Below, one piece after another: positions 929 through 60,633 of a DNA stretch of 64,000 bases. The DNA is from Thermodesulfobacteriota bacterium (lineage in GTDB: Bacteria > Desulfobacterota_D > UBA1144 > Nemesobacterales > UBA2774). Below the pieces are notes generated by a model that saw only the letters and a list, made by a program, of their open reading frames with translations, was not told where the DNA came from and did no database searches. Both the position numbers and the translations under genes were made by a program. Location: assembly GCA_965216785.1 (NCBI GenBank), contig OZ244197.1, positions 2,080,001-2,144,000 on the forward strand, written 5' to 3'. Position 1 is the stretch's first letter. Each line of letters begins with the position of its first letter.

Positions 929-1092
929 TTCTCTTCTTTTGAATGATCAAAAGAAGCAAAAATCACCGCCTAGACATAAATTACGCTAAAAATTAATTAT
1001 TCCAGCTAAACCTTATAATTCCACCCCATCCCATATAAGGTTTTTAACGCTTCCATAATTCATTTTCTTAACGCTATTTATGTATGTCGGAA
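929..1092. repeat. Dispersed structured repeat family A, copy 1
   Basis: Aligns by eye with 27608-27771, 41189-41372 and 60470-60633; small hairpin followed by a long interrupted hairpin. Confidence 0.9.
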
Positions 1093-1132
1093 TCTTAAAA
1101 ACAATATTGTTGCCTTGTTCTCTGGCTTGGAA

Positions 1133-1226
1133 TGGCGGAGAGGGTGGGATTTGAACCCACGAAAGGGTATAAGCCCTTTACTCGCTTAGCAGGCGAGCGC
1201 CTTCGACCGTACTCGGCCACCTCTCC
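1133..1226 (-). tRNA. tRNA-Ser(GCT)
   Basis: Reverse complement GGAGAGGTGGCCGAG...CTCGC-CT-GCT-AA-GCGAG, long variable arm, GTGGGTTCAAATCCCAC, ends CTCTCCGCCA. Confidence 0.97.
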
Positions 1227-1272
1227 GTGCGTTGGTTTTTATCGTAGGGGTGAGATTATACCAGTATCATGA

Positions 1273-1482
1273 GAAAAAATCTAACTCGCCCAAAGATGCC
1301 GATGATGGGGGTTCCTTAGGAGGGTTAGTACACTTGTGTACTCACTTCCTTCGGGCGAGTTAGATGTATGTTACATAGGGGTCGTAGATAAGCCGATATC
1401 TTTAAATTTAGTAATGAAAAGTCCCGGGCGCGGAGGGTCAGGCCGCGCCCGGATGTAGATGGGGGACAAATAGGAATGCTGT
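1273..1482 (-). ncRNA. Two tandem structured units or terminators downstream of the hicAB fusion (candidate sRNAs)
   Basis: Stem ATCTAACTCGCCC/GGGCGAGTTAGAT followed by a T-run on the minus strand, and stem CCGGGCGCGG/CCGCGCCCGG followed by TTTT; both enclose CCCTCC. Confidence 0.4.
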
Positions 1483-1497
1483 GTTTAGTAGTATTCA

Positions 1498-1920
1498 TCA
1501 TGATGCCTGTCTTATGTCGAAAAATGTCGAAGTACTATCCGGCTCACAATGTATTATGCCGTCCTGTCTGAGTCCTTCTAAGTGAAGGCGCACAGAGCTC
1601 AGCATCAGTTCCTTGGTCTCGTCGAGCGTGTCGCCTACGGCAACGCATCCCGGAAGGTCGGGGCAGTAAGCCGAGTAGCAATTCTGCGATTTTTCTACTG
1701 TAATCTCATAGTGCTCGCGCTCCGTAACGGCTTCTGTATCGAAGCAGTGTTTCAGAGAGTAATAAAGAGCGCCTTCCGGTAGTTCTTTATCCATCATACA
1801 GTTGAGCGTCACTCTTTGCTTTCTGCTCCTTAGTTTGAACTGTCGGTGGCTGCCGCATATCCTGACCAGGTACCACCCGTTATTCTCGACCAAAAACTTG
1901 ATTACCTCTCTAACTTTCAT
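1498..1920 (-). CDS. HicA-HicB fusion protein (HicA-like N-terminus, HicB-like C-terminus)
   Basis: MKVREVIKFL..GWYLVR..GSHRQFK matches HicA; YSAYCPDLPGCVAVGDTLDE..HLEGL matches HicB; single ORF with GGAGAGG RBS. Confidence 0.85.
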   Translation of the reverse strand: MKVREVIKFLVENNGWYLVRICGSHRQFKLRSRKQRVTLNCMMDKELPEGALYYSLKHCFDTEAVTEREHYEITVEKSQNCYSAYCPDLPGCVAVGDTLDETKELMLSSVRLHLEGLRQDGIIHCEPDSTSTFFDIRQAS

Positions 1921-1960
1921 TTACCATCCTCTCCGTATGTGTTTTCGTTGAAAGCCAGCT

Positions 1961-2182
1961 TTAATCGTCTTCTTGTTTGAACATTGCTACATTCTTAAAT
2001 TCCTCACCGGTCATTGCATTATCGAGATACTGTGTAAGAGCCTCCTCTATGATCTTGGATTGGCTAGTTCTCGATACGAAAGAGTACAACCTGAGCCTTT
2101 CGTAAAGCATTGAGGGTATGTAAAGAGACCCTCTGTGCATCTTCTGCGGGTTAGCCCGCTGCTGTATAGTTGCCGCTGTCAC
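1961..2182 (-). CDS. Ribbon-helix-helix (CopG-like) DNA-binding protein
   Basis: SLYIPSMLYERLRLYS..SQSKIIEEALTQYL RHH pattern. Confidence 0.75.
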   Translation of the reverse strand: MTAATIQQRANPQKMHRGSLYIPSMLYERLRLYSFVSRTSQSKIIEEALTQYLDNAMTGEEFKNVAMFKQEDD

Positions 2183-2188
2183 AATCTA

Positions 2189-2217
2189 TTTATAGCATCA
2201 TTACGTAATGATGTCAA
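2189..2217 (-). promoter_or_regulatory. Sigma70 promoter with a perfect 18-bp palindromic operator in the spacer
   Basis: TTGACA-N17-TATAAA on the minus strand; CATCATTACGTAATGATG at 2196-2213. Confidence 0.85.
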
Positions 2218-2394
2218 TAGGGTATTTTATTAAGATCGCAAAATTCACCTGATATAACAGCACTTTCGGCGTTTTGGCCATATTTTAATTAGTTTTTGTG
2301 AATCGCAAGCAGTGTGTTATATGACACAATTTAGGGGAAAAACGGGTTTTTTTGGCAATTTTCTAAAGAGAATGAAAAGGGGTGGATTTCTGCC

Positions 2395-2545
2395 TTCCCG
2401 GCATCGGCTGGAATAGGGACAGAGGCTGGGGGCAGCCACGATCCGGGGGAATAAAGTCAGAAAGTGTGATGCCGGGGTGGGTGATATAAAAAAACAGAGG
2501 CGACCCTTCGACTGCACACTGTGTATGCGCTCAGGGTATGCGGCT
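2395..2545 (-). repeat. Modular C-rich repeat family B, degenerate inverted copy
   Basis: Reverse complement contains CCCCGGCATC, GCTGCCCCCAGCCTCTGTCCC and TCGCCTCTGT modules also seen at 20205-20555. Confidence 0.7.
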
Positions 2546-2583
2546 TTAGTATTGTAGTGGTCATAGCATAGTGATGTCTATCT

Positions 2584-3888
2584 TTATGCTGTGCTTTTTC
2601 TTCTGACCGCGAGCAATCCAGCCATGCCCAGAATTACCGCTGCAGCGAACATACCCCACTGGCTCAGAGTCGGTATCGCGACCGGAAGACACCGGTATAA
2701 ATATACTTGTAGCTCATCGTTAGTAGTGTTCGGAAGTATGTTGCCCGTTGAGCTAAACGTAAGGAGCTCTCCCGTGGCGTCGAGCTTAGGGTTTTGATTA
2801 AAGCCTGTCGTAAGGTTAGTTATCTGCTCGAAAGTGTCATCGGCAATGTTAAAAGTAAATAACTGCTGTATTCCTAAAGGGTTTTGGCCCGTTAAATTGG
2901 CCGGCGATTGAAATACGATAATGTTGCCATTGGCGTTGACAAAGGGGTTTTGATTCTCGAGTCCTGTGAATGTGACCTGAGTAATAACACCTGTATCGTA
3001 AAAGTAAATCTCGCGGGCGTTTCCGGGGTTTCCGCCGTTAATATTTGAGGTGCTCTCAAATGAGATTATCGTGCCGGTTGAGTTAAGTGAAGGGTCGAAG
3101 CTGTTTCCGTTATCCTCCATCGTAATAGGAATGAATGTTGAAGAACCTATGTTGAAAGTATAAATCTCCTGGTTCTTGTTTGGGTTAGTGCCGTTTATGT
3201 CTGCAGAGCTTTCAAAGCCTATTATAGTACCGTTTAAGTTTATGAACGGATCTCTACTATTTTCCAAAGAATCGGTCACTTGTGTGATTATGCCGTTTGC
3301 AGGGGTTACGAAATATATTTCCGAGCTGAGGTCCCCGTTTCCGCCGTTTATGTCGGAGTCAGACTGAAAGGTGATAATGCCTCCGGCTCCGTCTATGGAT
3401 GGACTGAATATGTTCTTGCCGTCGTCTATATTGGTTAACTGCTGGAAGGTGCTCGTATTTACGTCAAAGAGTAAAAGTTGATTCTCGTTATTAGAGTTGC
3501 CGCCTGTAATGTCAGCTGTGGATAAAAACGCGATCTTCGAGCAATCGTTGTTAACATCAGCGGTATCGTTCTGACCGTCGATATTGCCTGGTGTAATTTG
3601 AGTGAGCTTCTTGCTCTCGATATCGTAATGAAATATTTGAAAATTGTTGTTAGGATTCTGACCTGTAAGATTTGAGCTTGATTCAAAAACAACACAGCTG
3701 CCGTCCGGGCTCAGCACGGGGTTTCTGCTAGTTTCTTCAGGATCGTTCGTTAAACGCTCGAAAATACATTTTTCCTGAGCCTCCACACTTGAGACTCCTA
3801 TCAAGACTGATATTACAATAAAGAAAATAGAGATTATGACTAAACTAAATGCTGGTTTTCTATATCTTGAATTATTGGCTCTGTCCAT
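2584..3888 (-). CDS. IPTL-CTERM surface protein with TolB/PD40-like beta-propeller repeats
   Basis: Signal peptide; repeated P.L..DG..I.F.S units; C-terminal IPTLSQWG, TM helix, RRK. Confidence 0.85.
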   Translation of the reverse strand: MDRANNSRYRKPAFSLVIISIFFIVISVLIGVSSVEAQEKCIFERLTNDPEETSRNPVLSPDGSCVVFESSSNLTGQNPNNNFQIFHYDIESKKLTQITPGNIDGQNDTADVNNDCSKIAFLSTADITGGNSNNENQLLLFDVNTSTFQQLTNIDDGKNIFSPSIDGAGGIITFQSDSDINGGNGDLSSEIYFVTPANGIITQVTDSLENSRDPFINLNGTIIGFESSADINGTNPNKNQEIYTFNIGSSTFIPITMEDNGNSFDPSLNSTGTIISFESTSNINGGNPGNAREIYFYDTGVITQVTFTGLENQNPFVNANGNIIVFQSPANLTGQNPLGIQQLFTFNIADDTFEQITNLTTGFNQNPKLDATGELLTFSSTGNILPNTTNDELQVYLYRCLPVAIPTLSQWGMFAAAVILGMAGLLAVRRKSTA

Positions 3889-3999
3889 CCACTTTCTCCC
3901 ATAAGCAATGTTGAATACAATATCGCACAATACTCAAGAATTATCAATACCTATAATTGGTAAGCTTAGTTCGTTAAAACTAGCAAGTCGGTCGCTTTT

Positions 4000-4512
4000 C
4001 TATATCCACCTTCGTGTGCGTTTTTTATAAGTGGTGTAATCAATGCCGAATTTGCCTTCCAGGTAGCGCTCCTCGCGCTCGATTACACCCTTTTGCATGA
4101 CTATTATGAACGGGAGAGTGAGGATTAATATCCATATGTTGCTTACGAGGACGGAAATGGCGATCATAAGGAGCGCCATCGAGAGATACATCGGGTTACG
4201 GGTGAAGCGGTATATGCCCTCGGTAACTACGCTCATGGAGGGTTTACGTACGTCTATGTTAGTGCCGGCTTTTCTCATCTGAAGCACAGCCAGGCTCATT
4301 ATGAGCACGGAATAAACGAGGAAAATCGCGCCCACTATAGTGCGCAGAGGGCCGTGGATAAAATGCATCGGGAAAAGATTGTGGAGAATTACGCCTACGC
4401 CTATAAATGCGATTAAAATTAGCGGAGGAAGGGCGATCACGCCCGGGTAGTCTTTCTGAGCCGGCGCTTTTTCCCCTGCGGGCCCGGTCTTTTTTTCTTG
4501 CTCGGCGCTCAC
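4000..4512 (-). CDS. Isoprenylcysteine carboxyl methyltransferase / PEMT family membrane protein
   Basis: GIYRFTRNPMYL and EERYLEGKFG..Y..Y...RRWI motifs. Confidence 0.9.
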   Translation of the reverse strand: MSAEQEKKTGPAGEKAPAQKDYPGVIALPPLILIAFIGVGVILHNLFPMHFIHGPLRTIVGAIFLVYSVLIMSLAVLQMRKAGTNIDVRKPSMSVVTEGIYRFTRNPMYLSMALLMIAISVLVSNIWILILTLPFIIVMQKGVIEREERYLEGKFGIDYTTYKKRTRRWI

Positions 4513-5034
4513 TTAATATCTCTCTCCCGGAGGGTGGGGCGGTCTCATTCCCTCATGCGGCGCTCCTGGCGGTCCCGGGGGTCCCATCCCAGGAGGGCCG
4601 TGGCGTCGGTGTCTTCGCATTTCTTCAATAAATTCGGAGAGGGCTTCGCGCTCTTCCTGGCTTAAGTTCTGAGCAAGCTCTGACACAGTGGATGCCATAT
4701 CCATTGTGAGTACACCCAGGAGATCGTGGAGCTCACGGGCCTCACCTTCAAACCGCTCGGGATCGAAATTCTCCGCCGTGAGTGTTTCGATAAGCTCTCT
4801 ACGTGTTTTCTCCAGCTCTATTTTAGCGCCTCTGGTCTCGCGTCTCAGCTCTTTCATGGCGCCGAGTATCATCTCCTTCTTTTCTTCTGGGAGGCTGCCT
4901 AGGGTCTCTTCCATATCTGCCCTCATTTTTCCCCAGTGGGCGGCCCGCTTTGAGAAATGGCCGATGGTAAGCCCTATGAACAGGAAATTTAATATAATTG
5001 AGATTATGAATACTGCCTTTAGTCCCTTACTCAT
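4513..5034 (-). CDS. Periplasmic heavy-metal-sensor / Spy-CpxP-like protein
   Basis: N-terminal TM ending SIILNFLFIG, helical body, LSQEER motif, Pro/Gly/His tail. Confidence 0.75.
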   Translation of the reverse strand: MSKGLKAVFIISIILNFLFIGLTIGHFSKRAAHWGKMRADMEETLGSLPEEKKEMILGAMKELRRETRGAKIELEKTRRELIETLTAENFDPERFEGEARELHDLLGVLTMDMASTVSELAQNLSQEEREALSEFIEEMRRHRRHGPPGMGPPGPPGAPHEGMRPPHPPGERY

Positions 5035-5452
5035 AAAGCCCTCCGTCGTTGTAAATGAGCTCGGCAATTTGAACGCCCTCGGGCTCTGAAGCCAGCTCGT
5101 TTGCCGGGTATAGGTATCCGGCTACAATCCCCACTACTAATATAATCGGTAGAGCGATTGCGGGGCTCGGGATCGGGAAGGTCGAAAATAATTCTTTTAA
5201 TGAACCGAATATGGAATTTTGTTTCTCTTGACCTATGGCGCTTGATATAATTCTATCGCTTAGTCCGTGCGAGCTTTCTTCAAACTCTCTTTGCATGAGA
5301 GCGTCCTCAAGCGATTTTTCGGCTTCGAGCAACTCCGCTAGCTCTGTTGAAGCTCTGAGCGCGCGGTTGGCGTCTTGCGCTAAGGCTTGTGGCCAACTGT
5401 CGATATCGGCGCCGTAGACGCTTAGATATTCTAAAAACTTTTCCCTATCGAT
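5027..5452 (-). CDS. Putative membrane anti-sigma factor (probable non-canonical ATC start at 5452)
   Basis: Frame stays open upstream of the called 5332 start and encodes DREKFLEYLSVYGADIDSWP; single TM; directly follows the ECF sigma gene. Confidence 0.7.
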   Translation of the reverse strand: MDREKFLEYLSVYGADIDSWPQALAQDANRALRASTELAELLEAEKSLEDALMQREFEESSHGLSDRIISSAIGQEKQNSIFGSLKELFSTFPIPSPAIALPIILVVGIVAGYLYPANELASEPEGVQIAELIYNDGGLYE

Positions 5453-6023
5453 TGTAAGCCACCTCCGTTTTTGGATTTGTGTTTAATTTTGCTCTTAAGC
5501 TGCCTTTAGCCCTCATAAGTAGTGATTCTAGTGCTTTTACGCTAATGTCCATTACTGACGCTGCCTCTTTTTGGCTCACTCCCTCGTAAAAACATAGCGC
5601 GAGCGCCGTCTGCTGGTTCTCGGGAAGCTCCCGTATTAGCGCTTCCACCTTGTCCTTAGCGCTCTTTAGCTCAGAAGCTTCTTCCTGCGAGCGCGCCTCG
5701 GATGTCAGCTCGTTAATATCGTTTGCTACAGTGTATTTTACTCTTTTTTTTACATCGAGACAGGCGTTTACTACCACCCTGTAGAACCACGTGGTGAACT
5801 TAACGTTCTTTGACGGGTCCCATTTCTCGGGCGAGTTCCACAACATAAGGAAAGAATCCTGCACTACGTCCTCGGCTCCTTCACGCTCTGAGAGCATGCG
5901 GTAAGAAAGAGCGTAGTACCTTTCTGTGTGGCGCCTTACTATTTCTGAGTACGCATCGCCGTTCTTTTCCATCACAAGCTTCATTAGTTCCTCGTCCGTA
6001 AGGTCTTTTGTGTCTTTTGCCAT
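5445..6023 (-). CDS. ECF-family RNA polymerase sigma factor
   Basis: AEDVVQDSFL, FTTWFYRVVVNACLD, region-4 LPENQQTALAL..EG.S..EAA. Confidence 0.95.
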   Translation of the reverse strand: MAKDTKDLTDEELMKLVMEKNGDAYSEIVRRHTERYYALSYRMLSEREGAEDVVQDSFLMLWNSPEKWDPSKNVKFTTWFYRVVVNACLDVKKRVKYTVANDINELTSEARSQEEASELKSAKDKVEALIRELPENQQTALALCFYEGVSQKEAASVMDISVKALESLLMRAKGSLRAKLNTNPKTEVAYNR

Positions 6024-6029
6024 GTTTCC

Positions 6030-6170
6030 ATTTTATCCTGCCCCGGCATCGCACTAAAACGCTCGCCTCCGTCCCCATATTTTATTCTGCCCCGGTATTG
6101 CCCGCTTATTTTTTATGCCTGCTCTCACTTACACACTATGTTCGCTCGCGGCCCCCAGCCTCCGTCCCCA
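6030..6170 (+). repeat. Modular C-rich repeat family B copy
   Basis: TTATCCTGCCCCGGCATCGC..CGCTCGCCTCCGTCCCCATA and CTGCTCTCACTTACACACTATGTTCGCTCGCGGCCCCCAGCCTC. Confidence 0.85.
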
Positions 6171-6254
6171 AAATAATAACATGTTAAGCATAATAAATAC
6201 GGAAGGGAGAGAGTTTAATCCCTCCCTCCCGCGAGAATGGAGGAGTGTAGGACG

Positions 6255-6716
6255 TTATTCGCTATCCGTGTTTCTGTCTTTCCCGAACCTTCCGTGCGGT
6301 CCGCCGGGTCCCTTGGGGCCCATCTGCGCGAGCACTTCCCTTTCTTCCTGTGTCAGCTCGGGCGCGAGCTTAGCCACGGCGTCCGTGAACGTGCTGAAAC
6401 GCTGGGCCATGAGAGTCTCTAGCTTCTCGGCATTGGCATTGAAAGCCTCGGCATCAAAAGTATCTGCCGTGAGGGCCTGCCTCATCGCTTCTCTAGTTTC
6501 CTTAACCTCTTCCCTGAGCCCTTCGTTCTGCTCTCTTACTTCCTTCATGGTCGAGAGTATCAGAGTCTGCGTATCGGGCGAGAGCTCCATAAGCGCTTCC
6601 ATGTTGGCCCTGCCGTGCCTTCCGTGTCCGCCGTGTCCCCAGTCGCCCGCGTAGGCTGCTATGGATGTGGTAAGTCCGATTCCGAGAATCGCCGCTGTCT
6701 TAATGTATTTGTTCAT
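6255..6716 (-). CDS. Periplasmic Spy/CpxP/ZraP-like protein
   Basis: Sec signal, GHGGHGRHG, LTQEER motif; paralog of 4513-5034. Confidence 0.8.
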   Translation of the reverse strand: MNKYIKTAAILGIGLTTSIAAYAGDWGHGGHGRHGRANMEALMELSPDTQTLILSTMKEVREQNEGLREEVKETREAMRQALTADTFDAEAFNANAEKLETLMAQRFSTFTDAVAKLAPELTQEEREVLAQMGPKGPGGPHGRFGKDRNTDSE

Positions 6717-6770
6717 TTCTGACCTCCTGGGTCGTGAATTTTTTTAGCCTTTTCGGCCTCTTTACTAATT

Positions 6771-6798
6771 GATACGAGCCGGCGAGGAAAACCCTTCG
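6771..6798 (-). promoter_or_regulatory. Candidate ECF promoter for the spy-sigma-antisigma operon
   Basis: GAAGGG-N15-CGTATC on the minus strand upstream of 6716; resembles bipartite ECF promoters. Confidence 0.4.
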
Positions 6799-6906
6799 GT
6801 GTTTTTTTTATGTTGTGAAAAAATATTCCGGTATTACGTCCGCATGGCTTGGCTGAGCTGTTTTCATGTTCTGTTTTTTCAGGATGTATGTGTTAATATT
6901 CGATAG

Positions 6907-7404
6907 ATGAGGTTATTACTTTTCACATTTCTGACACTGACAGTATTTATTGCGGCAAATACTCTTTATGCCCAGGAAACCCCGGAGCAGATAAGAGCCC
7001 AGGTGCAAGCGCTAATTGAAGAGACGCGTGAGTCTTCTGACTGGTTGTATATCGGCCAAACGGATCACGGCTATGTTGGCTTTATGGGTAAAGACCGTTT
7101 TCAGGTGAACGGACCCGAAAGGCGGGCGTGGACAAAAGTGTTCGTCCGCGGCGGAGAGACGGTAAAGACGAAAAACGGCAAAGAAAAAACTATGATATAC
7201 AGACTGACGCACAGAGTCTACGACTGCTCTCTCAACAGACTCTCGGACATCAAGTCCGTCGATTATTTCTCTGACGGTACGAACGAGAGTCTTGATTACG
7301 TGAGATTTTATCAGACTTATCCGGAGAAGAGGTGGACGGAGATCGTGCCGGGGAGCATCGGGGACGTGCTGCTTAAATTCGTATGCGAGTACGACCCTAA
7401 ATAA
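6907..7404 (+). CDS. Secreted protein, surface-adhesin-E-like
   Basis: Signal peptide; W.YIG, AWTKV, YDC, W..IVPGSIGD.L.KFVC pattern. Confidence 0.55.
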   Translation: MRLLLFTFLTLTVFIAANTLYAQETPEQIRAQVQALIEETRESSDWLYIGQTDHGYVGFMGKDRFQVNGPERRAWTKVFVRGGETVKTKNGKEKTMIYRLTHRVYDCSLNRLSDIKSVDYFSDGTNESLDYVRFYQTYPEKRWTEIVPGSIGDVLLKFVCEYDPK

Positions 7405-7450
7405 GCTTTCCCGGTCTGGAAATTCAAATCTTTTATATAGGAGCGCAACC

Positions 7451-8053
7451 ATGGCGGAGAGGAATATCAGCATTGTAGCTATAAAGGGGAGTGTGAGGCC
7501 CAATAACTACACGGAGATGGCGCTCGCGCTCGTGCTGGACGAATTTAAAAACCACAGCGGGGTAAATGTCCATCTTTTCGACCCGGCGGTGATGCACCTT
7601 TATCCCCCCGGACTTGGGGGCGACAACCCCGACCCAGGGAGGATGAGGGAGGCCGTTATAGAGTCAACGGGGATGGTGCTCGCTACACCGGAGTACCACG
7701 GCTCTTTCTCTAGCATCATGAAGCTCGCGATAGAAAACCTGGGGTTTCCCTCCGTAATGTCGGGTAAGCCGGTCGCGCTGCTGGGCGTAGCGGCGGGAGC
7801 CATAGGCGCTATCAAATCTCTTGAATCGCTAAGGGGCGTGTGCTCGCACGTAGGCGCTATAGTGCTGCCGGGACCTGTTTCCGTGGCCAACTGCACAGAG
7901 GTATTTAACGAGGACGGCACCTGTAACGACGAGAGGACGGAGAAGCGGATCCGGGGTGTTGCTACAAACATGATGCACTATATTGAAGACAACATCTGCC
8001 CTCGCGTATCGCTCGAAGCTATGGTTAGGGGAGAGGATCTGCCCGAGCGCTAA
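7451..8053 (+). CDS. NADPH-dependent FMN reductase
   Basis: GSVR, ATPEYHGSFSSIMKLAIE, GKPVALL. Confidence 0.92.
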   Translation: MAERNISIVAIKGSVRPNNYTEMALALVLDEFKNHSGVNVHLFDPAVMHLYPPGLGGDNPDPGRMREAVIESTGMVLATPEYHGSFSSIMKLAIENLGFPSVMSGKPVALLGVAAGAIGAIKSLESLRGVCSHVGAIVLPGPVSVANCTEVFNEDGTCNDERTEKRIRGVATNMMHYIEDNICPRVSLEAMVRGEDLPER

Positions 8054-8092
8054 CTTCTTCGTAATCTGATTTTTAATCTGATTGAACAGGGG

Positions 8093-8824: not shown

Positions 8825-9062
8825 CTGATCTCACCTGTGTAGATAGATCGATATTTAATATCCGTGTAGTGCCTATCTATGCTATCATCAATTTATATTA
8901 TTGCTAATTAAACAGTGAGGGTGAGTTAATATCTTTGATAAATCCAGCGCAAAGGATTTTCGGAGCTTTGTTACAGGTGGGACAGCGTATCTAATCCGGC
9001 TTATATGTATAGCCCCTGGAGTTGTCGAGGACCTGGATTTTGAACTCTGAATTTCCTATATC

Positions 9063-9110: not shown

Positions 9111-9159
9111 GGAAGCGGTAGAAATCACTTCCAAATTCACTTAGGACCGGGACGAAAAA

Positions 9160-27607: not shown

Positions 27608-27771
27608 TTCTTCTTTTGCATGATCAAAAGAAGCAAAAATCACCGACTGGACATAAATTACGCTAAAAATGAATTCTGTAAGCTAAACCTCCACAATTCC
27701 GCCCACACCCCGTGTGAGGTTTTTAACGCTTCCATAATTCATTTTCTTCACGCTATTTATGTATGTCGGAA
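27608..27771. repeat. Dispersed structured repeat family A, copy 2
   Basis: Colinear with 929-1092. Confidence 0.9.
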
Positions 27772-27882
27772 GCTTAAAAATTAAAGTGCAAAGTATTCAC
27801 TTCGTTTGGAAGCTTTAGAATTATTTGCTGTCTTGACGGATGCGGAGCCGGGAATATCTGGTATATTAATCAATTCCAAGTT

Positions 27883-41188: not shown

Positions 41189-41372
41189 TTCTTCTTTTGT
41201 ATGATCACACACGAAGTGTGAATTACTAAAAGATTACAAAAATCACCGCCTTTACATAAATGACGCTAAAATGAATGTAGTTGTATGATCCTTATAATTC
41301 TGCCCACACCCCGTATAAGGTTTTTCACGCCATTCTAATTAACTTTCTTTACGCTATTTATGTATGTCGGAA
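41189..41372. repeat. Dispersed structured repeat family A, copy 3 (with small internal hairpin insertion)
   Basis: Colinear with the other copies; extra CACACGAAGTGTG in the first hairpin. Confidence 0.85.
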
Positions 41373-41464
41373 ACTATTCACTCTTCGATAGGCTCAGAGT
41401 GATTGGGGTTTATTAGTGCCAAGTTTGTCGGAGATTGCTTCGCTATGCTCGCAATGACTGCAAT

Positions 41465-53127: not shown

Positions 53128-53216
53128 ACTAAGAGACTTTCAAGATTCTATAAAAGCATTGGCACCTGGCTCCTTTCTATAGTACTATGGGAAGTACTAC
53201 TCAGGAGGTGCATGAT

Positions 53217-53546: not shown

Positions 53547-53731
53547 GATAAAATTGTGCTGGGTTATTGGGGATTGCCGCAGTCGCTGTGCTCCTTCGCA
53601 ATGACAGCTTTTGACTAATTTCTCTCAATCTCCCTTTGCAAAAGGGAGAAGTCCGGTGTTTGACGCTTCGTTTTACCCGGGGTGTTTTGATTAAATAGTG
53701 CCTGGATTGCCGGAAATTATATTTCCATCAA

Positions 53732-54022
53732 TTACTGATATTCCGGCGGTAGCTGCTCATTCGCGAGGCATTCCACCGGGCATTTCGATAGTGAAAGCAG
53801 ATCCACGATCTCGGTTTCCTGGCAGGTGATGGGGTCGCTTGTGAACGTTACCTTGTCGGCAACCTGTATGTCGGCGCAATCGGCGAGCTTCTTATAGGGT
53901 TTTTGGCCTATGAGAATGTAGGGGCCTTTAATAGCTGTAACTGTATATTCTGACTGGTCTTGGGCAAAGGAGCTTACGGATAGGGCTGAAATCAGAAAAA
54001 GCGCTGCTAGTAATGTTTTCAC
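53732..54022 (-). CDS. Small secreted hypothetical protein
   Basis: GGAGG RBS, signal peptide, four Cys. Confidence 0.7.
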   Translation of the reverse strand: MKTLLAALFLISALSVSSFAQDQSEYTVTAIKGPYILIGQKPYKKLADCADIQVADKVTFTSDPITCQETEIVDLLSLSKCPVECLANEQLPPEYQ

Positions 54023-54144
54023 GTGCGTATCCTCCGGTTACTGAGCTTTTAGGGATTATACTCAAATCTCCGTACAAGCTCAATCTAATATTACCAAGCG
54101 CTATTATGTGGTACTAATGATATTGAGCCTATGGAAGCGCAGTG

Positions 54145-54618
54145 CTAAGCCGAGTCTCTAAGCCCGCTTGCCTGTATGCGCTCTATAAAATTCCTGAACT
54201 CGTTCAGCTCTTTTTTGTTGTACTTGCAGAGAAAATTCTCTCTTACCACTTTTTCATAGACCTGCCACATCTGCCGGCGGAGCTTTTTGCCCTTCTCCGT
54301 AATGCAGGCGAACACTCCCCTGCCGTCCATGGGGCATTGCGAGCGGCTTACCAGGCCTTCCTTCTCCAGTCTCTGGACCAGTCTGGTTACGTTGTGTTTG
54401 TCGAGAATAACTTTCTTGCCGATATCGTTCAGTCTCAGGCTCCCGTCCTCCGCGCTTTCGAGCTCCCAGAGTATGTCGTACCAGCTAAGCTGGGGGAATC
54501 CGGCTTTCTTTAGCTCTTCTTCCACTCTATCCAGTAAGTGCTGCTGGGCTTTTACGAGCCCAATCCACGCCTGTGTCTCAGTCTCCGTCCATTTTGCCGT
54601 GCTGCTTTTCTTCTTCAT
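54145..54618 (-). CDS. MarR family transcriptional regulator
   Basis: LSWYDILWEL, LRLNDIG..V.L.K.NVTRLV.RLEKEGLV.R..CP.DGRG...ITEKG; start moved to the ATG after AGGAGG. Confidence 0.93.
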   Translation of the reverse strand: MKKKSSTAKWTETETQAWIGLVKAQQHLLDRVEEELKKAGFPQLSWYDILWELESAEDGSLRLNDIGKKVILDKHNVTRLVQRLEKEGLVSRSQCPMDGRGVFACITEKGKKLRRQMWQVYEKVVRENFLCKYNKKELNEFRNFIERIQASGLRDSA

Positions 54619-54653
54619 GTACGCCCTCCTTACCGCTAATATAATACATCTAG

Positions 54654-54717
54654 GTTGCAATTGCAACTAGTTTGTGCTATTCTCCTATATAGTTGCACTT
54701 GCAACTAGTATGGATTC
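54654..54717. promoter_or_regulatory. Tandem palindromic operators in the marR / rhodanese divergent region
   Basis: GTTGCAATTGCAAC 54654-54667; GTTGCACTTGCAAC 54692-54705; GGATTC 54712-54717. Confidence 0.85.
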
Positions 54718-54744
54718 AAAAATATTCTAAGGAGGTTTTCTCAC

Positions 54745-55077
54745 ATGAGAAGAATTACAAGAGACGAGCTGAGGGACAAGCTTGAGAGCGGGCACGCGTT
54801 TACATTGGTAGAGGCGCTGCCCGAGAAATACTGGCAGAGCACTCACCTGCCGGGCGCGCTGCAGATGGACTATACGGAGGTAAGGGAGAGGGCGCAAAGC
54901 GTGCTGCCGGACAAAAACGCTCCGGTTGTTGTGTACTGCGCGAGCAGGGAGTGCAAAAACTCATCCAAGGCCGCACGCGCGCTAGAGTCGCTCGGGTACA
55001 GCGATGTTTATGAGTATGAAGAAGGTAAAGAGCACTGGATGCAGGCTGGATTGCCGGTAGAGTCGGAGGAGGGATAA
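54745..55077 (+). CDS. Single-domain rhodanese protein
   Basis: HLPGA, VVVYCAS.EC.NS..AA..L..LGY..V..YEEG. Confidence 0.9.
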   Translation: MRRITRDELRDKLESGHAFTLVEALPEKYWQSTHLPGALQMDYTEVRERAQSVLPDKNAPVVVYCASRECKNSSKAARALESLGYSDVYEYEEGKEHWMQAGLPVESEEG

Positions 55078-55533
55078 ATGTTAGAGAAACTTTTAAGTAC
55101 TAATCCAAGTAATACGGCCGCGCTCGCGGCCCGGGTGTTCCTCGGGGTTGTGATACTGCCGCACGGGCTTCAGAAGCTCCTCGGCATGTTCGGAGGGTAC
55201 GGGTTTTCGGCTACGGTGGAATATTTTTCGGGCATGGGTATCCCTAGTCTGATAGGGGCGCTAATCGTGCTGGGTGAGTCGCTTGGCGCGCTCTTTTTGA
55301 TCCTTGGGTTTCTGAGCCGGCTATCGGCAGCGGGCATCGGGATAATTATGATCGGGGCTATAGTGACGGTTCACGGGCAGAACGGGTTTTTTATGAACTG
55401 GTTCGGCACTCAGGCGGGGGAGGGGTATGAGTATCACCTGCTCGCTCTCGGGCTCGCGGCCTCGCTCGTAATAAGCGGAGGAGGCAGGTTGTCCTTTGAC
55501 AATCTCATAGCTGATCGGCTTGGGAGACAGTGA
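55078..55533 (+). CDS. DoxX family membrane protein
   Basis: PHGLQKL.G.FGGYG, GFFMNW.G...GEGYEYHLL. Confidence 0.93.
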   Translation: MLEKLLSTNPSNTAALAARVFLGVVILPHGLQKLLGMFGGYGFSATVEYFSGMGIPSLIGALIVLGESLGALFLILGFLSRLSAAGIGIIMIGAIVTVHGQNGFFMNWFGTQAGEGYEYHLLALGLAASLVISGGGRLSFDNLIADRLGRQ

Positions 55534-55559
55534 GCGGGAAAAAGGGTTGTATATAGAAT

Positions 55560-55664
55560 GTCATAATATCTGACAGCGCGGATTTTCCGGCCGGCTATCG
55601 GGTTTGATATTATCTATTAATATCAATGTCTTATAGATGACTTGCCTGCTGGCACAGGTGTTGC
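55560..55664 (+). promoter_or_regulatory. Sigma54 promoter with upstream TGT-N11-ACA enhancer-like palindrome
   Basis: TGGCAC-AGGTG-TTGC 55650-55664; TGTCATAATATCTGACA 55560-55576. Confidence 0.75.
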
Positions 55665-55723
55665 AATATATTAAAATAGGGTATCGGTAGGATACTCAAA
55701 TACAGGGTACGGGGGTATTTGAT

Positions 55724-56002
55724 ATGTCAAAATTTGTTGCGGTACATCCAGTAGATCCTCCGGTTAGAATGGAGGATGTAGGTCCAGTGGCGAAGAAAGC
55801 AAAAGCGGGACTTAGCACAGACGCTTACTGGGTAAAGAGCTGGCTTATGTTGAACGACTCGGGAGAGGTCACGGCTATTTACTGTGAGTGGGACGGTAAG
55901 GACAAAGAAGCCGTCAAGAACGCTCTCGAAACCACCATTCCCGAGCTGCCGTTCTCTGAGCTCTCGCAGATGGCGGAGATTCAAAGTGAAGACTTCAGGT
56001 AG
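55724..56002 (+). CDS. DUF4242-like small protein
   Basis: F.A.H, YWVKSW, IYCEWDG.D.EAV pattern. Confidence 0.55.
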   Translation: MSKFVAVHPVDPPVRMEDVGPVAKKAKAGLSTDAYWVKSWLMLNDSGEVTAIYCEWDGKDKEAVKNALETTIPELPFSELSQMAEIQSEDFR

Positions 56003-56056
56003 TTAACTCTAAGGGCGGGCGGCGTAAGCGCCGCCCGCCCGGTTATATCGATCCAA

Positions 56057-57484
56057 TCATTTAAATATTACGATCGCGGTCAGCGCCAGAAGGTATATGC
56101 CGATCGCAGCCTCAAAGCCTACGAATATCCTTGACCAGCCGACGGGTTTATACTGCACGGGGGTGAGTCTGAAAAACTCCAGCCACTGCCTTGGCTTGAT
56201 TGCGCCGTAGCCGAAGGTGGCCAGCGAGAGCAGACTGAAATAAACGCAGTTTACAAGCCCAGCGCCACTGTCGAATCCAAGCGGCTCCGGGCTGGCCGCG
56301 GCGCCGCCTATCTCTTCCATAATATATGATTTTCTCTCTGCCTTGGGATTACCAGTCTCGGTAACGTAATAAGTCTTTTTAGTCTCATCGCCCTTACTTA
56401 CAAGATAGATTCCCGAGCGTCCGGGAAGTACTGTCTGGAGTGTGTAAATGAGCCCGAATACCAGGATTACGCCGGCGCAGAAAGGGATGAGCCTGAGAGG
56501 TCTTGAGCCGTAGCCGTAAGTCCAGCCAAGGAAAACTTCCCTTAGCATTTTAATCGGCTGGGGGGAGAGCTTTGTTTTAACCACGTTTTCCCTGTAGTGG
56601 AACTCGCTTATGACCTCTTCGTGAAAATGCAGTTTGTAGAGGTTCTTAAGGTCTCTGTAGCGGATGAGCGCGTCTTCGAGGCGGCCATCGAGCTCGTCAT
56701 TAATAATGTAGGGGTTTTGGGCAAGCTCGCTGCCCCATATTATCTGTGACATGTTGCGTGTGCCCTTAAAGTCTATGTCCCACATCTGCCGGGGCTCGAG
56801 CACGGCTCCTGACAGATCGGCGCCGACTAGATTCGCCCCGCTAAGGACCGCGCCGTAGAGCTCCGCGCCTGTGAGATCCGTATAACTGAGATCAGCATCG
56901 GTAAAATTGCCCCCTGTGAGCACCGCGCCCCGCAGATCGGCATGAGCGAGGTTAGCTCCTTTAAGCCTCGCGCCCGTAAAGAGGGCGCCTCTCATATCGG
57001 ACGAGCGCAGATCGGCCTCGTCAAGCACGGCGTCCGCGAGCACAGCGTTTGTGAGGATGGACTCTGTGAGATCGGCTTTCCACAAATTTGTCAGGCTGAG
57101 CATAGCGCCCTGTAGATTGGTATCGGACAAATTGGCCTCCTCAAGGTCCGTACCGTCGAAATTTGCCCATTTTAGGTTCGCGTGGCTAAGGTCCGCTTTG
57201 TTAAGGTCTACATTGCTAAGATCGATCGCTCTCAGATCAAAGCGGTCAGTTGTATTGTCCCAGTCCTCGGTTTCCACGAAGTATGGCATTGGGAGATTAT
57301 TCTGGAGCGCGTAGATAACCTCGTTTACTTCTTCAATGCTCCATCGCCGGGCAAGCTCGAAAGCCTCTTTTACGGATTGCTCTTCCCCGCTGGCTTCTTT
57401 ACTTTCTTCCTGAGCGTGGGAGTGCGGGGTGAATAAGACAAATAGTATGGTAATGAGCAGAGGGAGGAGTTTTGCCGGTCTCAT
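56057..57484 (-). CDS. Pentapeptide-repeat protein fused to a potassium-channel-like membrane domain
   Basis: Signal peptide, A(D/N)Lxx repeats, GYG.RP.R, YFS..SLATFGYG, EAAIG. Confidence 0.85.
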   Translation of the reverse strand: MRPAKLLPLLITILFVLFTPHSHAQEESKEASGEEQSVKEAFELARRWSIEEVNEVIYALQNNLPMPYFVETEDWDNTTDRFDLRAIDLSNVDLNKADLSHANLKWANFDGTDLEEANLSDTNLQGAMLSLTNLWKADLTESILTNAVLADAVLDEADLRSSDMRGALFTGARLKGANLAHADLRGAVLTGGNFTDADLSYTDLTGAELYGAVLSGANLVGADLSGAVLEPRQMWDIDFKGTRNMSQIIWGSELAQNPYIINDELDGRLEDALIRYRDLKNLYKLHFHEEVISEFHYRENVVKTKLSPQPIKMLREVFLGWTYGYGSRPLRLIPFCAGVILVFGLIYTLQTVLPGRSGIYLVSKGDETKKTYYVTETGNPKAERKSYIMEEIGGAAASPEPLGFDSGAGLVNCVYFSLLSLATFGYGAIKPRQWLEFFRLTPVQYKPVGWSRIFVGFEAAIGIYLLALTAIVIFK

Positions 57485-57657
57485 GATATTAGGAGATTAT
57501 TTAACTCGGGTGAGTAATGCAAGGCGCGGCGCGCGGGAGAGAGCGGCGGTTTCAACTGAGCCGCTATTGTATAATCGCTGATTACTACGTGAATCCGGAT
57601 AGTTCCACTCTGAAATGTGTGCTACACTTTAATATAAACATGGTTCAAGGCGGATAT

Positions 57658-58119
57658 GTGAGATTTTCAAAGACAGGCCTATTCACATCATTCATACTAC
57701 TACTTTTATTCACCGCTATTTCTTTAGCTGAGGATTTTATTGAAGACCTGATCGATCCCCGTGACCGCATGGAGCGGAGACCTGAAGTCCCTATTGGATA
57801 TGATTTTGAAGACGTTATATTCAACAGGGATTACTTTTATACTGTAACGGAAGGGACAATACAGTTCCGAAACTCCAACAGCGGCCCCTGGAAGTCTCTC
57901 GACCTGAAACTCGGAGTGGCAAAGCCCGGCGACCAAACCCTTAAGGAAGTACCCGCGGAGGATTCCTGGGAGAATGAAGTCGCGCCGGCGACTGTGGAAG
58001 CCCGTCCGTCCGGGCAGTCTTCGGACGGTGTAAGAGAGCAGATAACCAAACCTGAGAAAAAGAAAACCAGGGAAGATGTGCTGCGTGAGCTTCAGCGTAA
58101 GGTTGAGGGCGGGGGGTAG
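57658..58119 (+). CDS. Secreted hypothetical protein
   Basis: Signal peptide from GTG 57658 ending SLA. Confidence 0.6.
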   Translation: MRFSKTGLFTSFILLLLFTAISLAEDFIEDLIDPRDRMERRPEVPIGYDFEDVIFNRDYFYTVTEGTIQFRNSNSGPWKSLDLKLGVAKPGDQTLKEVPAEDSWENEVAPATVEARPSGQSSDGVREQITKPEKKKTREDVLRELQRKVEGGG

Positions 58120-58300
58120 AGACCGGGATGACAAATACTGCAAGAGATAAAACAAAACCCGGCCACACAACATTTTGCGTGAACGGGTTTTTCATATGTT
58201 AGGAACTAGTAGTGCGCATCTGGGACAAACGTCATCTCTCAACCTGAGTATCTTAAACTTTAGAACACCAAATAAGCTTTTAGTAGTTCCGTTTATTTTA

Positions 58301-59011
58301 TTATAGCTGTTTAGAAGATTGTACCCTCGTAATAAGTTTTTTTCTATGGTCGCCGTGTTTTTTATCAACCGTCTTGGCGTGCCACTTGTTAAATTGCTCT
58401 TTGTCCTGAGCGCGCGCGAGCGGCTCGCGCCCTTTCCAGTCATCCGATATCTCGGAAGCTTCTAGAATTTCAATAAATTCCGTCCTTGCTTTTTCCGGGT
58501 CGTCCTCGTTCTTTAGGCTCACCAGCCTTCCGATGAGCTCGTACAGCCTCCAGTTCTCCGAGTTGCCCGGCTCTTTAACCGCTATTGTGAGTATCTCGAT
58601 GCTTTCATTCAGGCTGTCCGTCTTGAACGTAAGAGTCTCTTCGTCCTCGATCTCTATTTCCCTTAGCGCCAGGTGCTCGTAGATCGTTCCGCTCTTACCC
58701 TTATTGAATGTTACATTAGGGTTCTTTACGACAGTTTCCTGCCAGTCCTCCACCTTTAGAGTCTGCGAGTTGTGGGGGGCAACGCGGTAGCGGTGCTTAA
58801 ACACTTTGGGGTGGGGCCAGTGAACGACGCCCGAGTTCTTGTTAACTATCATATTGGTGTCTGACCATACCTCGGGCGAAGGCGTCGCGACTACCTTCTT
58901 GGCCTCTTTGTTGTCGGCAAAGGCAAACGGCGCCCCAGCGCTGTAGACCTTTATCAGACCTGCAGCTCCAACCGACTTTACCAATACGCTAAGAAATTGT
59001 CTTCTTTTCAT
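58301..59011 (-). CDS. Hypothetical protein with twin-arginine (Tat) signal
   Basis: MKRRQFL...AFA. Confidence 0.7.
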   Translation of the reverse strand: MKRRQFLSVLVKSVGAAGLIKVYSAGAPFAFADNKEAKKVVATPSPEVWSDTNMIVNKNSGVVHWPHPKVFKHRYRVAPHNSQTLKVEDWQETVVKNPNVTFNKGKSGTIYEHLALREIEIEDEETLTFKTDSLNESIEILTIAVKEPGNSENWRLYELIGRLVSLKNEDDPEKARTEFIEILEASEISDDWKGREPLARAQDKEQFNKWHAKTVDKKHGDHRKKLITRVQSSKQL

Positions 59012-59163
59012 CTGTCCACTCTAATATCCGCTAAACCCTTTTCATATATTAATATGATGAGAATTGTGAAGTCAAGAATTTTTTAAAATAGGGGATTTTA
59101 AGTTTTTACCGTTTAGTTAATTCTCACTATATCCGTGCGTACTATGAAGGGGAAGATTGTATT

Positions 59164-59301
59164 TGTGTAATATAACCCGAATGGGTTTGTTTATATTACA
59201 CAGAATCTGTAGTCAATCTTCTGTGTTTGATGAGTGTTTTATCGTAACCCTCCCAAAAGACTGGATAAAGCAAAATTAGATCAATTTGGCACGGGGGTTG
59301 C
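59164..59301 (+). promoter_or_regulatory. Sigma54 promoter with upstream inverted repeat
   Basis: TGGCAC-GGGGG-TTGC 59287-59301; TGTGTAATATAA...TTATATTACACA at about 59164-59202. Confidence 0.75.
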
Positions 59302-59315
59302 ATTATGAATTGCCA

Positions 59316-59360
59316 ACGGGGCAGAGGCAAGCGTTTTACAGCGATGCCCGCAGGTATAAA
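59316..59360 (-). repeat. Single inverted module of repeat family B
   Basis: Reverse complement TTTATACCTGCGGGCATCGCTGTAAAACGCTTGCCTCTGCCCC. Confidence 0.7.
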
Positions 59361-59401
59361 TACTTAATTCCCCGTAAAAAACAGCAGGAGGTAACAGCTT
59401 T

Positions 59402-59728
59402 ATGAGAATTTCAATTCTTTCATTATTTTTAGCTTTAGCAGTTGTGGTGGCGGGTCCTCTCGCGTTCGCCGGCTCAGACGTTATAGAAGAGCAGGTCACG
59501 GAGCAGGAAACAGCGCCAGGGCCAGAGGCTCTTGAAGAAGTAGCGGACACTACAGCTGAAGAAACACAGACTGTCGTTCAGGAAAAAGTAGACGAGACGC
59601 AGGAAGCGATCGTAGTGGAAGCCGCGGCTGAAGACTGCGCCAACGGGGCTGACGACGACGGCGATGAGAAAGTGGATTGCGACGACTCTGACTGCGCCGG
59701 AGACCCTGGATGTAAAAGCGGTTATTAA
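59402..59728 (+). CDS. Secreted acidic protein with a C-terminal putative metal-binding motif
   Basis: Signal peptide; EDCANGADDDGDEKVDCDDSDC. Confidence 0.8.
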   Translation: MRISILSLFLALAVVVAGPLAFAGSDVIEEQVTEQETAPGPEALEEVADTTAEETQTVVQEKVDETQEAIVVEAAAEDCANGADDDGDEKVDCDDSDCAGDPGCKSGY

Positions 59729-59878
59729 TACTCTTAATGTGATTTATTGCTGATACATGGAATAGAGTAGCAAAGGGATTGTCTGGTTAATGAAGCATTC
59801 CTACTCTTCCATCATCCTCAATACCCCGGGCCGCCTAAATGCGGTCCGGGGCTTTTTTTATCTACCCTAGTTTTTTCG

Positions 59879-60313
59879 TCAATCCATCTTAACTGTAACT
59901 CCGGAAGCCCCTAAAGAGACAGAGATACCTTCGCTTGTGGACTTAACTCTCATATAAACATTATTTTGGTTCTTCATGACCACGCCGCCTACGCCGCCGC
60001 CGAGTGTGATGCCGTAGTCCCCGGCTACGTATGTGCCGGCAAACTGCTCTATGTCAAAAAGGTCGTACACCTCTCCGACTGCCGAGACTTTTGATACCCC
60101 GACGCCGCCCACTTTAAGGCCGCTTATTTTGAACGGATAGTTCTCGCCCTCGAACTGAAGGTTACCTTTGCCCCAGCCGCCGCCGATGATGAGCGCGAAC
60201 TCCTTTTCCTCAATCTCTACCGTGCCCGAGGGGACTTTCTCTTCAGCGCCTGCCTGGAACGCTACGAGCGTGATGATTACCGCCAAGAAAAACTTAGTTG
60301 CTTCCCTGATCAT
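59879..60313 (-). CDS. Exported beta-rich Gly-rich hypothetical protein (DUF1134/EipA-like)
   Basis: Signal; IGGGWG.G.L.F.G..YPF.I.GL.VG..G, F.G.Y, MKNQNNV. Confidence 0.7.
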   Translation of the reverse strand: MIREATKFFLAVIITLVAFQAGAEEKVPSGTVEIEEKEFALIIGGGWGKGNLQFEGENYPFKISGLKVGGVGVSKVSAVGEVYDLFDIEQFAGTYVAGDYGITLGGGVGGVVMKNQNNVYMRVKSTSEGISVSLGASGVTVKMD

Positions 60314-60469
60314 GTAGTGCCTCCTTGTATTTGTTATCCGCAATTGTACACGGTTTAATCCGCCGCCAGCAAATCGCCTAGCGGTTGATATTATTTCTAA
60401 CATACAATTGGGGTGTTATGAGTGTGTTTTTCAGGAGAATGTCAAATTGTAGATGACTATTATTCTTCC

Positions 60470-60633
60470 TTCTCTTCTTTTGAGTGATCAAAAGAAGCAA
60501 AAATCACCGTCTAGGCAGAAATGACGCTAAAAATTAATTATTCTGGCTAAACCTTATAATTCCACCCCATCCCGTATAAGGTTTTTAACGCCATCCTAAT
60601 TAATTTTCTAAACGCTATTTCTGCATGCCGGAA
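60470..60633. repeat. Dispersed structured repeat family A, copy 4
   Basis: Colinear with copy 1, with paired substitutions. Confidence 0.9.

Follow-up and report, generated by a model that had tools for sequence, protein, structure and literature searches.

The four repeat copies in the 64,000-nucleotide stretch of DNA analysed here (the window) are members of an uncatalogued family of non-coding repeats. What is new is their arrangement, i.e., in five genera of a Dadabacteria-like family copies are clustered against one conserved site and oriented with the local GC skew. This near-uniform facing beside a single site suggests a strand-specific way of spreading, and the single-strand fold of the repeat is predicted to be a long rod that ends in a 3' pseudoknot. 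A preliminary description of the window had located the four copies correctly, in one orientation and all intergenic, and REP-type hairpins do abut copies 3 and 4 (Table 1), but it did not recognise the pseudoknot, nor were the longer modular forms or the polarised clustering noticed. Its count of four holds within the window; genome-wide, 16 full copies are present in the source genome (G000).

Table 1. Positions of the repeat copies and of neighbouring hairpins in the window
Feature	Coordinates	Strand	Description
Copy 1	931..1094	minus	Short form; rod first, pseudoknot at 3' end; 172 bits (model)
Copy 1, pseudoknot head	933..965	minus	Predicted 4-bp stem (UGAU/AUCA), U-rich 5-nt loop, 9-bp U-A-rich stem
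Copy 1, rod	966..1090	minus	Stacked variable stems with two conserved GCGUUAA/UUUAGC asymmetric loops between them; G-rich apical loop (predicted)
Copy 2	27608..27773	minus	Short form; 178 bits
Copy 3	41190..41374	minus	22-nt hairpin module inserted in head; 94 bits
REP-like hairpin abutting copy 3	41378..41402		Separate repeat family, co-oriented
Second REP-like hairpin after copy 3	41431..41458		Separate family
Copy 4	60472..60635	minus	Short form; 174 bits
REP-like hairpin abutting copy 4	60639..60663

Predicted fold and comparison with known families

The minus strand was taken as the better-folding strand, judged by the G-U and G-A pairs that it carries: its paired columns hold 152 G-U against 41 A-C, together with 171 A-G mismatches. 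Folding z-scores gave no distinction between the strands (-5.83 versus -5.93), and copy 1 folded far better than its shuffles on both (z of -5.7 for plus and -4.9 for minus, with 0/200 shuffles as good). The hairpin and rod described earlier had been folded on the wrong strand; the terminal hairpin is one half of a predicted H-type pseudoknot. Likewise, the supposedly unpaired ACGC loops read GCGU on the minus strand, with their GC paired, and the unpaired part is an asymmetric UUAA bulge. The U-rich loop of the modelled pseudoknot likely forms base triples, presumably as in the telomerase-type H-type knot with U-A-U triples. In copy 3 the head stem is degenerate, and its 22-nt head module recurs in the five long copies that the source genome carries outside the window.

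Covariation of the element is strong. The paired changes quoted in the preliminary description are present in the sequence, and the four copies alone show two-sided change in 6 of 45 predicted pairs. Two-sided changes were found in 28 of 54 pairs of an unfitted alignment, a number that 0/500 shuffles reach, and in 42 of 50 pairs of a fitted one. When RNAalifold was run on a 54-sequence plus-strand MAFFT alignment, only the head hairpin was recovered; as the variable stems misalign there, minus-strand and model-fitted alignments were used. The covariation of both rod and pseudoknot supports the earlier view of a structure-selected element.

The comparison with Rfam proposed earlier matched no known family: in an Rfam 15 scan of short, long, Dadabacteria and Flavobacteriaceae copies, none reached the gathering score. 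Flavo-1 (RF01705) gave 0 matches at E<=10 in the source genome and none on the Flavobacteriaceae copies. The one pattern match from an Auribacterota MAG lacked the fold of the element. One trait, a long basal stem with a 3' pseudoknot in multicopy intergenic elements, is shared (as a predicted fold) with the extended TwoAYGGAY RNAs of Pseudomonadota (RF01731), a multicopy RNA family described by Li et al. (10.64898/2026.09.22.753630). The extended TwoAYGGAY RNAs occur as dispersed divergent doublets, whereas the repeats analysed here form co-oriented arrays anchored at one site, and each has one rod in which two asymmetric loops are conserved. The paired AYGGAY terminal loops that mark RF01731 are absent from our consensus (the motif occurs anywhere in 11 of 109 copies), the RF01731 model had matches in 0/5 carrier genomes, with 14 control genomes equally silent, and cmscan of the element loci gave no RF01731 match. 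Plasmid and phage collections yielded one weak full-length plasmid match (69.6%, E 4e-3), one 33-nt match and no phage match, so a role as plasmid single-strand origin is without support. In a literature search that covered few subscription papers, neither this family nor any transfer agent of Dadabacteria was found described.

Site turnover and clustering at a conserved site

Among relatives, matches to the element model range from 0 to 109 per genome; some lack the element (G008, G029), and it is also present in Flavobacteriaceae. Together with filled and empty orthologous sites, this range supports the earlier proposal of a non-autonomous mobile element. The site of copy 1 is filled in G002 and lacking in G001 and G021 (the G002 sites orthologous to copies 2 and 4 stop at contig breaks), and at 10 of 14 syntenic G001/G002 loci the element is missing from the source genome. 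Two of these empty sites are nearly clean (10 versus 419 bp and 16 versus 361 bp), and the filled sites hold a block of element plus flanking DNA in place of 10-16 bases. No target duplication is visible at these two sites, the flanks of which are only about 80% identical; long flanking duplications occur at two Flavobacteriaceae loci (L305, L314). Terminal inverted repeats were not found, the best end-to-end complement being 3-6 nt in 109/109 copies. None of the assembled contigs of four DNA runs joins across a copy.

Copies most resemble others of their own genome or genus. The nearest neighbour of a copy lies in the same genome in 71 of 89 cases and in the same genus in 86 of 89, and where three genera share an occupied site, likeness between the copies is 64-73%, against 85-96% to their home-genome paralogues. 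At the four sites that the source genome shares, module sets differ inside common flanks, and internal modules are gained and lost in place.

The conserved site is an ECF sigma gene next to a conserved phage-like head-tail-lysis cluster. Arrays start about 1-6 kb from the same sigma gene in G000, G007 and G013 and span the adjoining cluster in G005 and G021; in G004, G022 and G018 the arrays fall on a different contig from the sigma gene. Apparently undescribed and domesticated, the cluster has the gene content and fixed position expected of a gene transfer agent: its proteins are 66-73% identical across genera, its locus is fixed, and no integrase or replication family was found among the 65 of 78 G005 ORFs scanned. 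It has been deleted in blocks in G000, which keeps only a remnant, G007 and G013, and particle genes were not found in the high-copy genomes G013, G022 and G004. Conversely, two genomes with a tail-tube gene carry no element (G027, G033). In a phage operon that is intact and syntenic, copies stand between the genes and were therefore inserted into it; the folding strand there is antisense.

Strand polarity and the search for a mobilising enzyme

On 20-kb pieces of six genomes, which were picked around clusters and come from related, non-independent genomes, the folding strand coincided with the C-rich-skew strand for 115 of 116 copies; it did so at 65 of 79 separate 3-kb loci. This polarity fails in Flavobacteriaceae (12/24) and in G036 (6/10). 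On the complete chromosome of G005, 50 of 51 matches fall within 10% of its length, and orientation flips at the conserved site together with GC skew, with 8 copies facing one way to its left and 42 the opposite way to its right. Skew also flips at the conserved site in the source genome, where 4 of 16 copies oppose the replichore defined by KOPS-type motifs. The orientation flip of that chromosome lies at 2.233-2.247 Mb and its dif-like site at 2.551 Mb, a separation of about 310 kb that makes the chromosome notable in itself; for both reasons, "lagging strand" is read here from local skew and not from a known fork direction. In the G013 array, co-oriented copies stand every 1-3 kb over 140 kb, with 56/56 starts on one strand. 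Genes between copies run in both directions, in multi-gene blocks, and no link to gene direction was seen in 76 Dadabacteria loci (23/22/19/12). Unrelated REP-like families that flank the element have the same polarity. The polarity of the element would follow from selection against the other orientation just as it would from an insertion bias.

The Y1/RAYT partner envisaged in the preliminary description found no support. Y1 transposase (PF01797) occurs in 14 of 41 genomes and is absent from the source genome and four high-copy relatives (G007, G013, G019, G022), and reverse transcriptase (PF00078) occurs in 9 of 41 and is absent from G000, G005, G007, G013 and G022. No element was found in 50 loci around Y1, GIY-YIG or RT genes; the GIY-YIG search returned none whatsoever in the source genome, so under-calling is possible there. 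Integron integrase (TIGR02249) was found in 0/25 genomes of the family at E<=1e-30, RecT is absent from the source genome and most high-copy relatives, and ComEC, present in 5/5 genomes, does not discriminate. DUF559 nuclease genes occur in 12 of 26 carriers and 0 of 15 non-carriers, and are missing from G005, G007 and G021; around the four inspected stands either another hairpin family, rich in purines, or no such family. None of Y1, GIY-YIG, RT, integron integrase, RecT or DUF559 tracks with the element, and the 201 ORFs beside 172 copies fall into 148 clusters with no common partner.

Competing explanations and implications

The explanation that we favour, at even chances of being right, is that a modular non-coding repeat, for which a rod tipped by a 3' pseudoknot is predicted, spreads as a folded single strand that anneals into the chromosome in one strand orientation; its mobilising enzyme was not found. 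The folded strand would have the sense of the nascent lagging strand, and a single-stranded donor would then anneal to the exposed lagging-strand template. The donor (DNA, or RNA/cDNA) may anneal via short flanking homology and be patched in, and gene conversion and module swaps would arise by the same annealing route. The structure would persist through the copying itself: a copy would be propagated only if it folds and is recognised, via the conserved loops and triple-helix knot. The weakest step of this proposal concerns the location of the arrays, which may reflect a maximal supply of single-stranded or incoming DNA in that region, near the terminus and next to the domesticated phage-like particle cluster. 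A doubtful but possible alternative is a host-useful RNA module: copies would be transcribed from the minus strand and retained for an RNA function, with the 3' triple-helix pseudoknot shielding or marking the end of the RNA, and mobility would be secondary. The G-U excess and the A-G mismatches at paired columns, and a pseudoknot geometry compatible with U-A-U triples in an RNA H-type knot, would agree with this. In Flavobacteriaceae, moreover, the folding strand is the sense one at about 12 of the 15 loci that lie between co-directional genes (hand count), one of them inside the ATP synthase operon (L263). Dadabacteria, however, lack such a sense bias, the strand is antisense in the phage-like operon, and sites turn over between congeneric genomes. 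A similar function is proposed for extended TwoAYGGAY RNAs (10.64898/2026.09.22.753630). Single-stranded DNA can form G-T and G-A pairs and T-A-T triples too, as in the class IV (pyrimidine-motif) intrastrand triplex that the pseudoknot head fits; the BoxC/intrastrand-triplex repeats are likewise single-strand intergenic hairpin mosaics (PMC4666352).

An ordinary MITE- or REPIN-type derivative of a known transposase family, with its partner lost or missed, is quite improbable. The element does co-occur with REP-like families and DUF559 genes, but the inspected DUF559 genes lack element flanks, and neither inverted ends nor a target duplication were seen. REP/BIME/REPIN sequences with RAYT are also intergenic single-strand hairpin mosaics; the rod here is much longer and covaries, and Y1/RAYT is absent from most high-copy genomes. 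The behaviour of the family is like that of bcr1 of the Bacillus cereus group, which is a dispersed intergenic repeat (PMC3184786) of about 155 bp at non-conserved sites, with compensatory changes that keep its structure and no encoded enzyme; bcr1 differs in being a cruciform with 5-bp direct repeats that was shown to be transcribed, where the present family has a rod with pseudoknot, nested modules and no target duplication that could be seen. Polar replication barriers, i.e., two oppositely facing groups of folded repeats fixing termination at the orientation flip, would account for the arrangement in G005 and the skew flip in the source genome, but are the least probable reading: no opposite-facing group stands beside the site in G013, G007 or G021, relatives without any copy exist, sites turn over rapidly, and skew within the phage-like cluster is confounded by gene direction. 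It is also unlikely that the repeats are strand-specific, attC-like recombination sites that work without integron integrase and swap accessory gene blocks beside a gene-transfer-agent-like cluster supplying DNA. The dense G013 array, the shared anchor, and the conserved, integrase-free and block-deleted cluster point that way. The attC arrays of sedentary chromosomal integrons are also long rows of co-oriented, single-strand-folding sites, and in 25 of 30 sedentary integrons the strand that folds lies, as here, on what is presumed to be the leading-strand template (PMC5371416). Against this stand the two-directional, operonic gene blocks between copies, the insertions within an intact phage operon, and the mismatch between element and particle genes in both directions. 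Nor was an integron integrase found, and in a scan with the attC box consensus, 0/109 copies had both end boxes.

The mechanism of movement is testable because the constraints are unusually sharp (no end repeats, patch-like insertion with flanks, module swaps, near-complete polarity and a conserved anchor site next to a phage-like particle cluster), and since Flavobacterium and Capnocytophaga carriers are in culture, whether the folded molecule is RNA or DNA can be addressed experimentally. More ambitiously, and improbably in our estimate, the repeats may serve recombination in a gene-exchange array that needs no integrase and is tied to one site. It would be a polarised region of 150-300 kb that extends from one fixed position next to the domesticated phage particle cluster, and there an undescribed enzyme, directed by single strands with rod and pseudoknot, would insert, delete and convert accessory gene blocks. 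Integrons and Bartonella-type transfer agents are known adaptive platforms, and such an array, if real, would be a new kind parallel to them. We know of no way in which multicopy repeats with a rod and 3' pseudoknot, be it the extended TwoAYGGAY RNAs or the present family, are moved; the array would offer a first handle on the movement of a cross-phylum class of pseudoknot-tipped repeats.

Fold, covariation and strand

The four copies in the window, already located in the preliminary description, were confirmed with a mean column identity of 72% (flanks included) and lie clear of every ORF of at least 100 aa, as had been claimed. A neighbouring tRNA was the sole Rfam match in the window, with nothing returned for the element copies, and no description of the family came up in the literature searches. 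The claimed structure-keeping compensatory changes are also seen in wider alignments. With 22 sequences aligned without fitting to the model, pairing holds in 90% of cells and two-sided changes occur at 28 of 54 pairs; with 105 distinct copies fitted to the model, they occur at 42 of 50, although fitted alignments lean towards structure. None of 500 shuffles matched the result of the unfitted alignment, and relatedness among copies is accounted for in neither control. In an alignment-free test, for which 52 of 54 copies could be parsed, left arms paired more strongly with the right arm of their own copy than with right arms of other copies (-16.3 vs -10.0, -7.6 vs -2.9, and -7.6 vs -2.2 kcal/mol).

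The minus strand carries more G-U among its predicted pairs (274/3000 vs 47/2719 on the other strand), its paired columns hold 152 G-U vs 41 A-C, and its energy is lower in 52 of 54 copies folded as RNA and 47 of 54 folded as DNA; folding z-scores did not separate the two strands. On the minus strand, the predicted fold starts with a rod that is interrupted by two conserved asymmetric loops; after it comes an H-type pseudoknot (the head), formed between the four bases preceding a U-run and the loop of a U-A-rich hairpin. When left out of the model, the pseudoknot pairing is still 90% paired, with two-sided changes at 3/4 pairs, and its pairs rank among the top mutual-information pairs. This 4-mer pairing is complete in 176 of 225 heads and three-quarters complete in 42, while a control 4-mer paired completely in none. 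The U-run loop and U-A stem are near-invariant, which would fit a requirement for major-groove U-A-U (or T-A-T) triples. Longer copies have additional side modules, always at set positions and with as many as three levels of nesting.

Distribution and turnover of sites

BLAST and nhmmer searches of the window's genome, G000 (3.12 Mb, single contig), gave 16 full copies, namely, 11 short (164-184 nt) and five long (276-385 nt), besides two head-only remnants. A single region that makes up 10% of the chromosome (1.93-2.25 Mb) holds 12 of the 16 (binomial p about 2e-9). Copy 4 of the window adjoins a gene that encodes C-type lectin and IPTL-CTERM domains. Elsewhere in the window, one stretch has a second variant (26 differences over 236 bases) in contigs of three runs, representing either a diverged repeat or a strain allele.

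DNA searches matched the element in 26 of 41 related genomes (same family, 20/24). With a covariance model derived from 22 copies read on the minus strand, there were 109 matches in G013, 51 in the complete chromosome G005, 46 in G036, 36 in G007, 7-12 in each of three Flavobacteriaceae genomes, and zero in G008 and G029. A pattern scan of GTDB genomes yielded at least 141 matching stretches, 80 of them with titles; these 80 listed matches were mostly MAGs labelled Dadabacteria or Thermodesulfobacteriota, along with one Flavobacterium and two Capnocytophaga genomes, whose copies share the Dadabacteria architecture but differ in the apical loop. The element was present in 6 of 61 sampled Flavobacteriaceae and in 2 of 41 genomes of a class-wide sample that included G000. 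The family is cross-phylum and patchy.

Empty sites, which the preliminary description had suggested seeking in relatives, do exist. Among 23 loci of two congeneric genomes, 22 contain the element and 14 could be placed in G000 by both flanks; four of these are filled and ten (nine distinct sites) lack it. At the two cleanest, blocks of 361 and 419 bases, made up of the element, unique flank and REP-like hairpins, replace 16 and 10 bases, respectively, with no target duplication visible. Sites filled in both have common flanks and different module content. The nearest neighbour of a copy comes from the same genome in 71 of 89 cases and from the same genus in 86. At one site filled in three genera, copies are 64-73% alike across genera and 85-96% alike to paralogues of their own genome; since orthologous-site copies are less alike than home paralogues, conversion or repeated re-insertion is indicated. 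Neither terminal inverted repeats nor attC boxes were found in the copies searched, and element loci have no constant neighbour gene or gene direction.

Several individual loci are listed in the table. About 500 bases inside the rod of one copy resemble part of a nucleotidyltransferase gene, presumably AbiEii-like, a possible capture of host DNA. At a Flavobacterium locus, complete copies are surrounded by tandem partial left arms, partial right arms and additional pseudoknot heads, an arrangement that repeated template switching might produce. Direct duplications of flanking DNA (~70 bases) surround two Flavobacteriaceae copies.

Features and their coordinates
Feature	Location	Remark
Phage-like head-tail-lysis cluster	G005:C1:2263000-2336000 (L268-L271)	Fixed site beside ECF sigma gene, five genera
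Remnant of phage-like cluster	G000:C1:2230100-2232600	All that G000 keeps
Low-GC tandem array, tape-measure-like genes	L268:14679 to L270:1058 (G005:C1:2274700-2301100)	Similar N-termini
GC-skew flip	G000:C1:2233000	
Dif-like site and motif-polarity flip	G000, 2550772	
Tyrosine-recombinase-like genes	G000:C1:870935, 1163412, 1289416	208-213 aa
Lectin/IPTL-CTERM gene	window 60672-61577	
Second variant	window 35868-36103	
Gene-like insert	L195:16988-17762	
Partial arms and extra heads	L337 (G041:C12:57500-68500)	
Flank duplications	L305, L314	
DUF559 genes with hairpins	L192:9565-11539, L294:720-1034	Inside arrays

Mobilisation and comparison with known systems

In how it works, the element is likened to dispersed structured repeats of the bcr1 and extended TwoAYGGAY types. 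As a TwoAYGGAY (RF01731), MITE, REPIN/RAYT or integron, it fails in each case on the membership features tested. The Y1/RAYT transposase flanked by the element that had been suggested did not emerge: G000 and most high-copy relatives were negative in searches for Y1 transposase, reverse transcriptase (RT), integron integrase and RecT, and the element was absent from all 50 loci inspected around Y1, GIY-YIG or RT genes. DUF559 is confined to carriers (12/26 vs 0/15 non-carriers), is missing from carriers G005, G007 and G021, and is flanked by another hairpin family in three of four genes inspected. At two loci, DUF559 nuclease genes have inverted purine-rich (BoxC-like) hairpins on either side, a layout that resembles a REP-plus-enzyme unit. 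G000 also has three paralogous stand-alone tyrosine-recombinase-like genes distant from the array.

Single-strand annealing would most simply explain at once why insertions look like patches, why copies undergo conversion and swap modules, and why they are polarised: a folded single-stranded donor would anneal to the exposed lagging-strand template. That template is preferred for annealing in oligonucleotide recombineering. Selection against the opposite orientation, which has been argued to act on attC sites (PMC5371416), would produce the same polarity as insertion bias.

Polarity and the site beside the ECF sigma gene

In G013, all 56 element starts lie on one strand across 140 kb, spaced 1-3 kb apart and interspersed with ordinary accessory genes in both directions. 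Of 116 copies on 20-kb pieces of six genomes, picked around clusters, 115 fold on the strand opposite the G-rich one, and the same skew polarity holds in 65 of 79 shorter loci; several unrelated REP-like families have the same polarity as the element. No strand polarity was seen in Flavobacteriaceae (12/24) or G036 (6/10). In G005, 50 of 51 matches fall within 275 kb, 8 in one orientation and 42 in the other. The point at which orientation flips is orthologous in G005 and G000; it lies next to the gene for an ECF sigma factor, and GC skew reverses sign there too. Arrays start about 5 kb from this gene in G013 and 1 kb in G007, and in G021 the array covers the phage-like cluster adjoining it; none of these three has an opposite-facing group next to the site.

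In G000, a dif-like site and the flip of KOPS-type motifs both map to 2.551 Mb, which places them about 310 kb away from where the elements flip; a DnaA-type motif lies at 0.845 Mb. The GC-skew flip is likewise about 310 kb from the dif-like site, and the separation appears similar in G005. Candidate explanations for arrays abutting one site are nearness to the terminus, a fork trap, or DNA delivered by the phage-like particle cluster.

The tape-measure-like genes of the low-GC tandem array in G005 alternate with opposite-strand genes for small CxxC membrane proteins, and the whole looks like a polymorphic cargo/immunity array. Products of the phage-like cluster are terminase, portal, scaffold, capsid, neck, tail tube and tape-measure-like proteins and an endolysin, its portal and tube proteins being 66-73% identical across genera; no integrase or replication families were found among the 65 of 78 cluster ORFs scanned in G005. 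With this gene content and its conserved position at a fixed site in five genera, the cluster is a candidate gene transfer agent of the Dadabacteria-like family.
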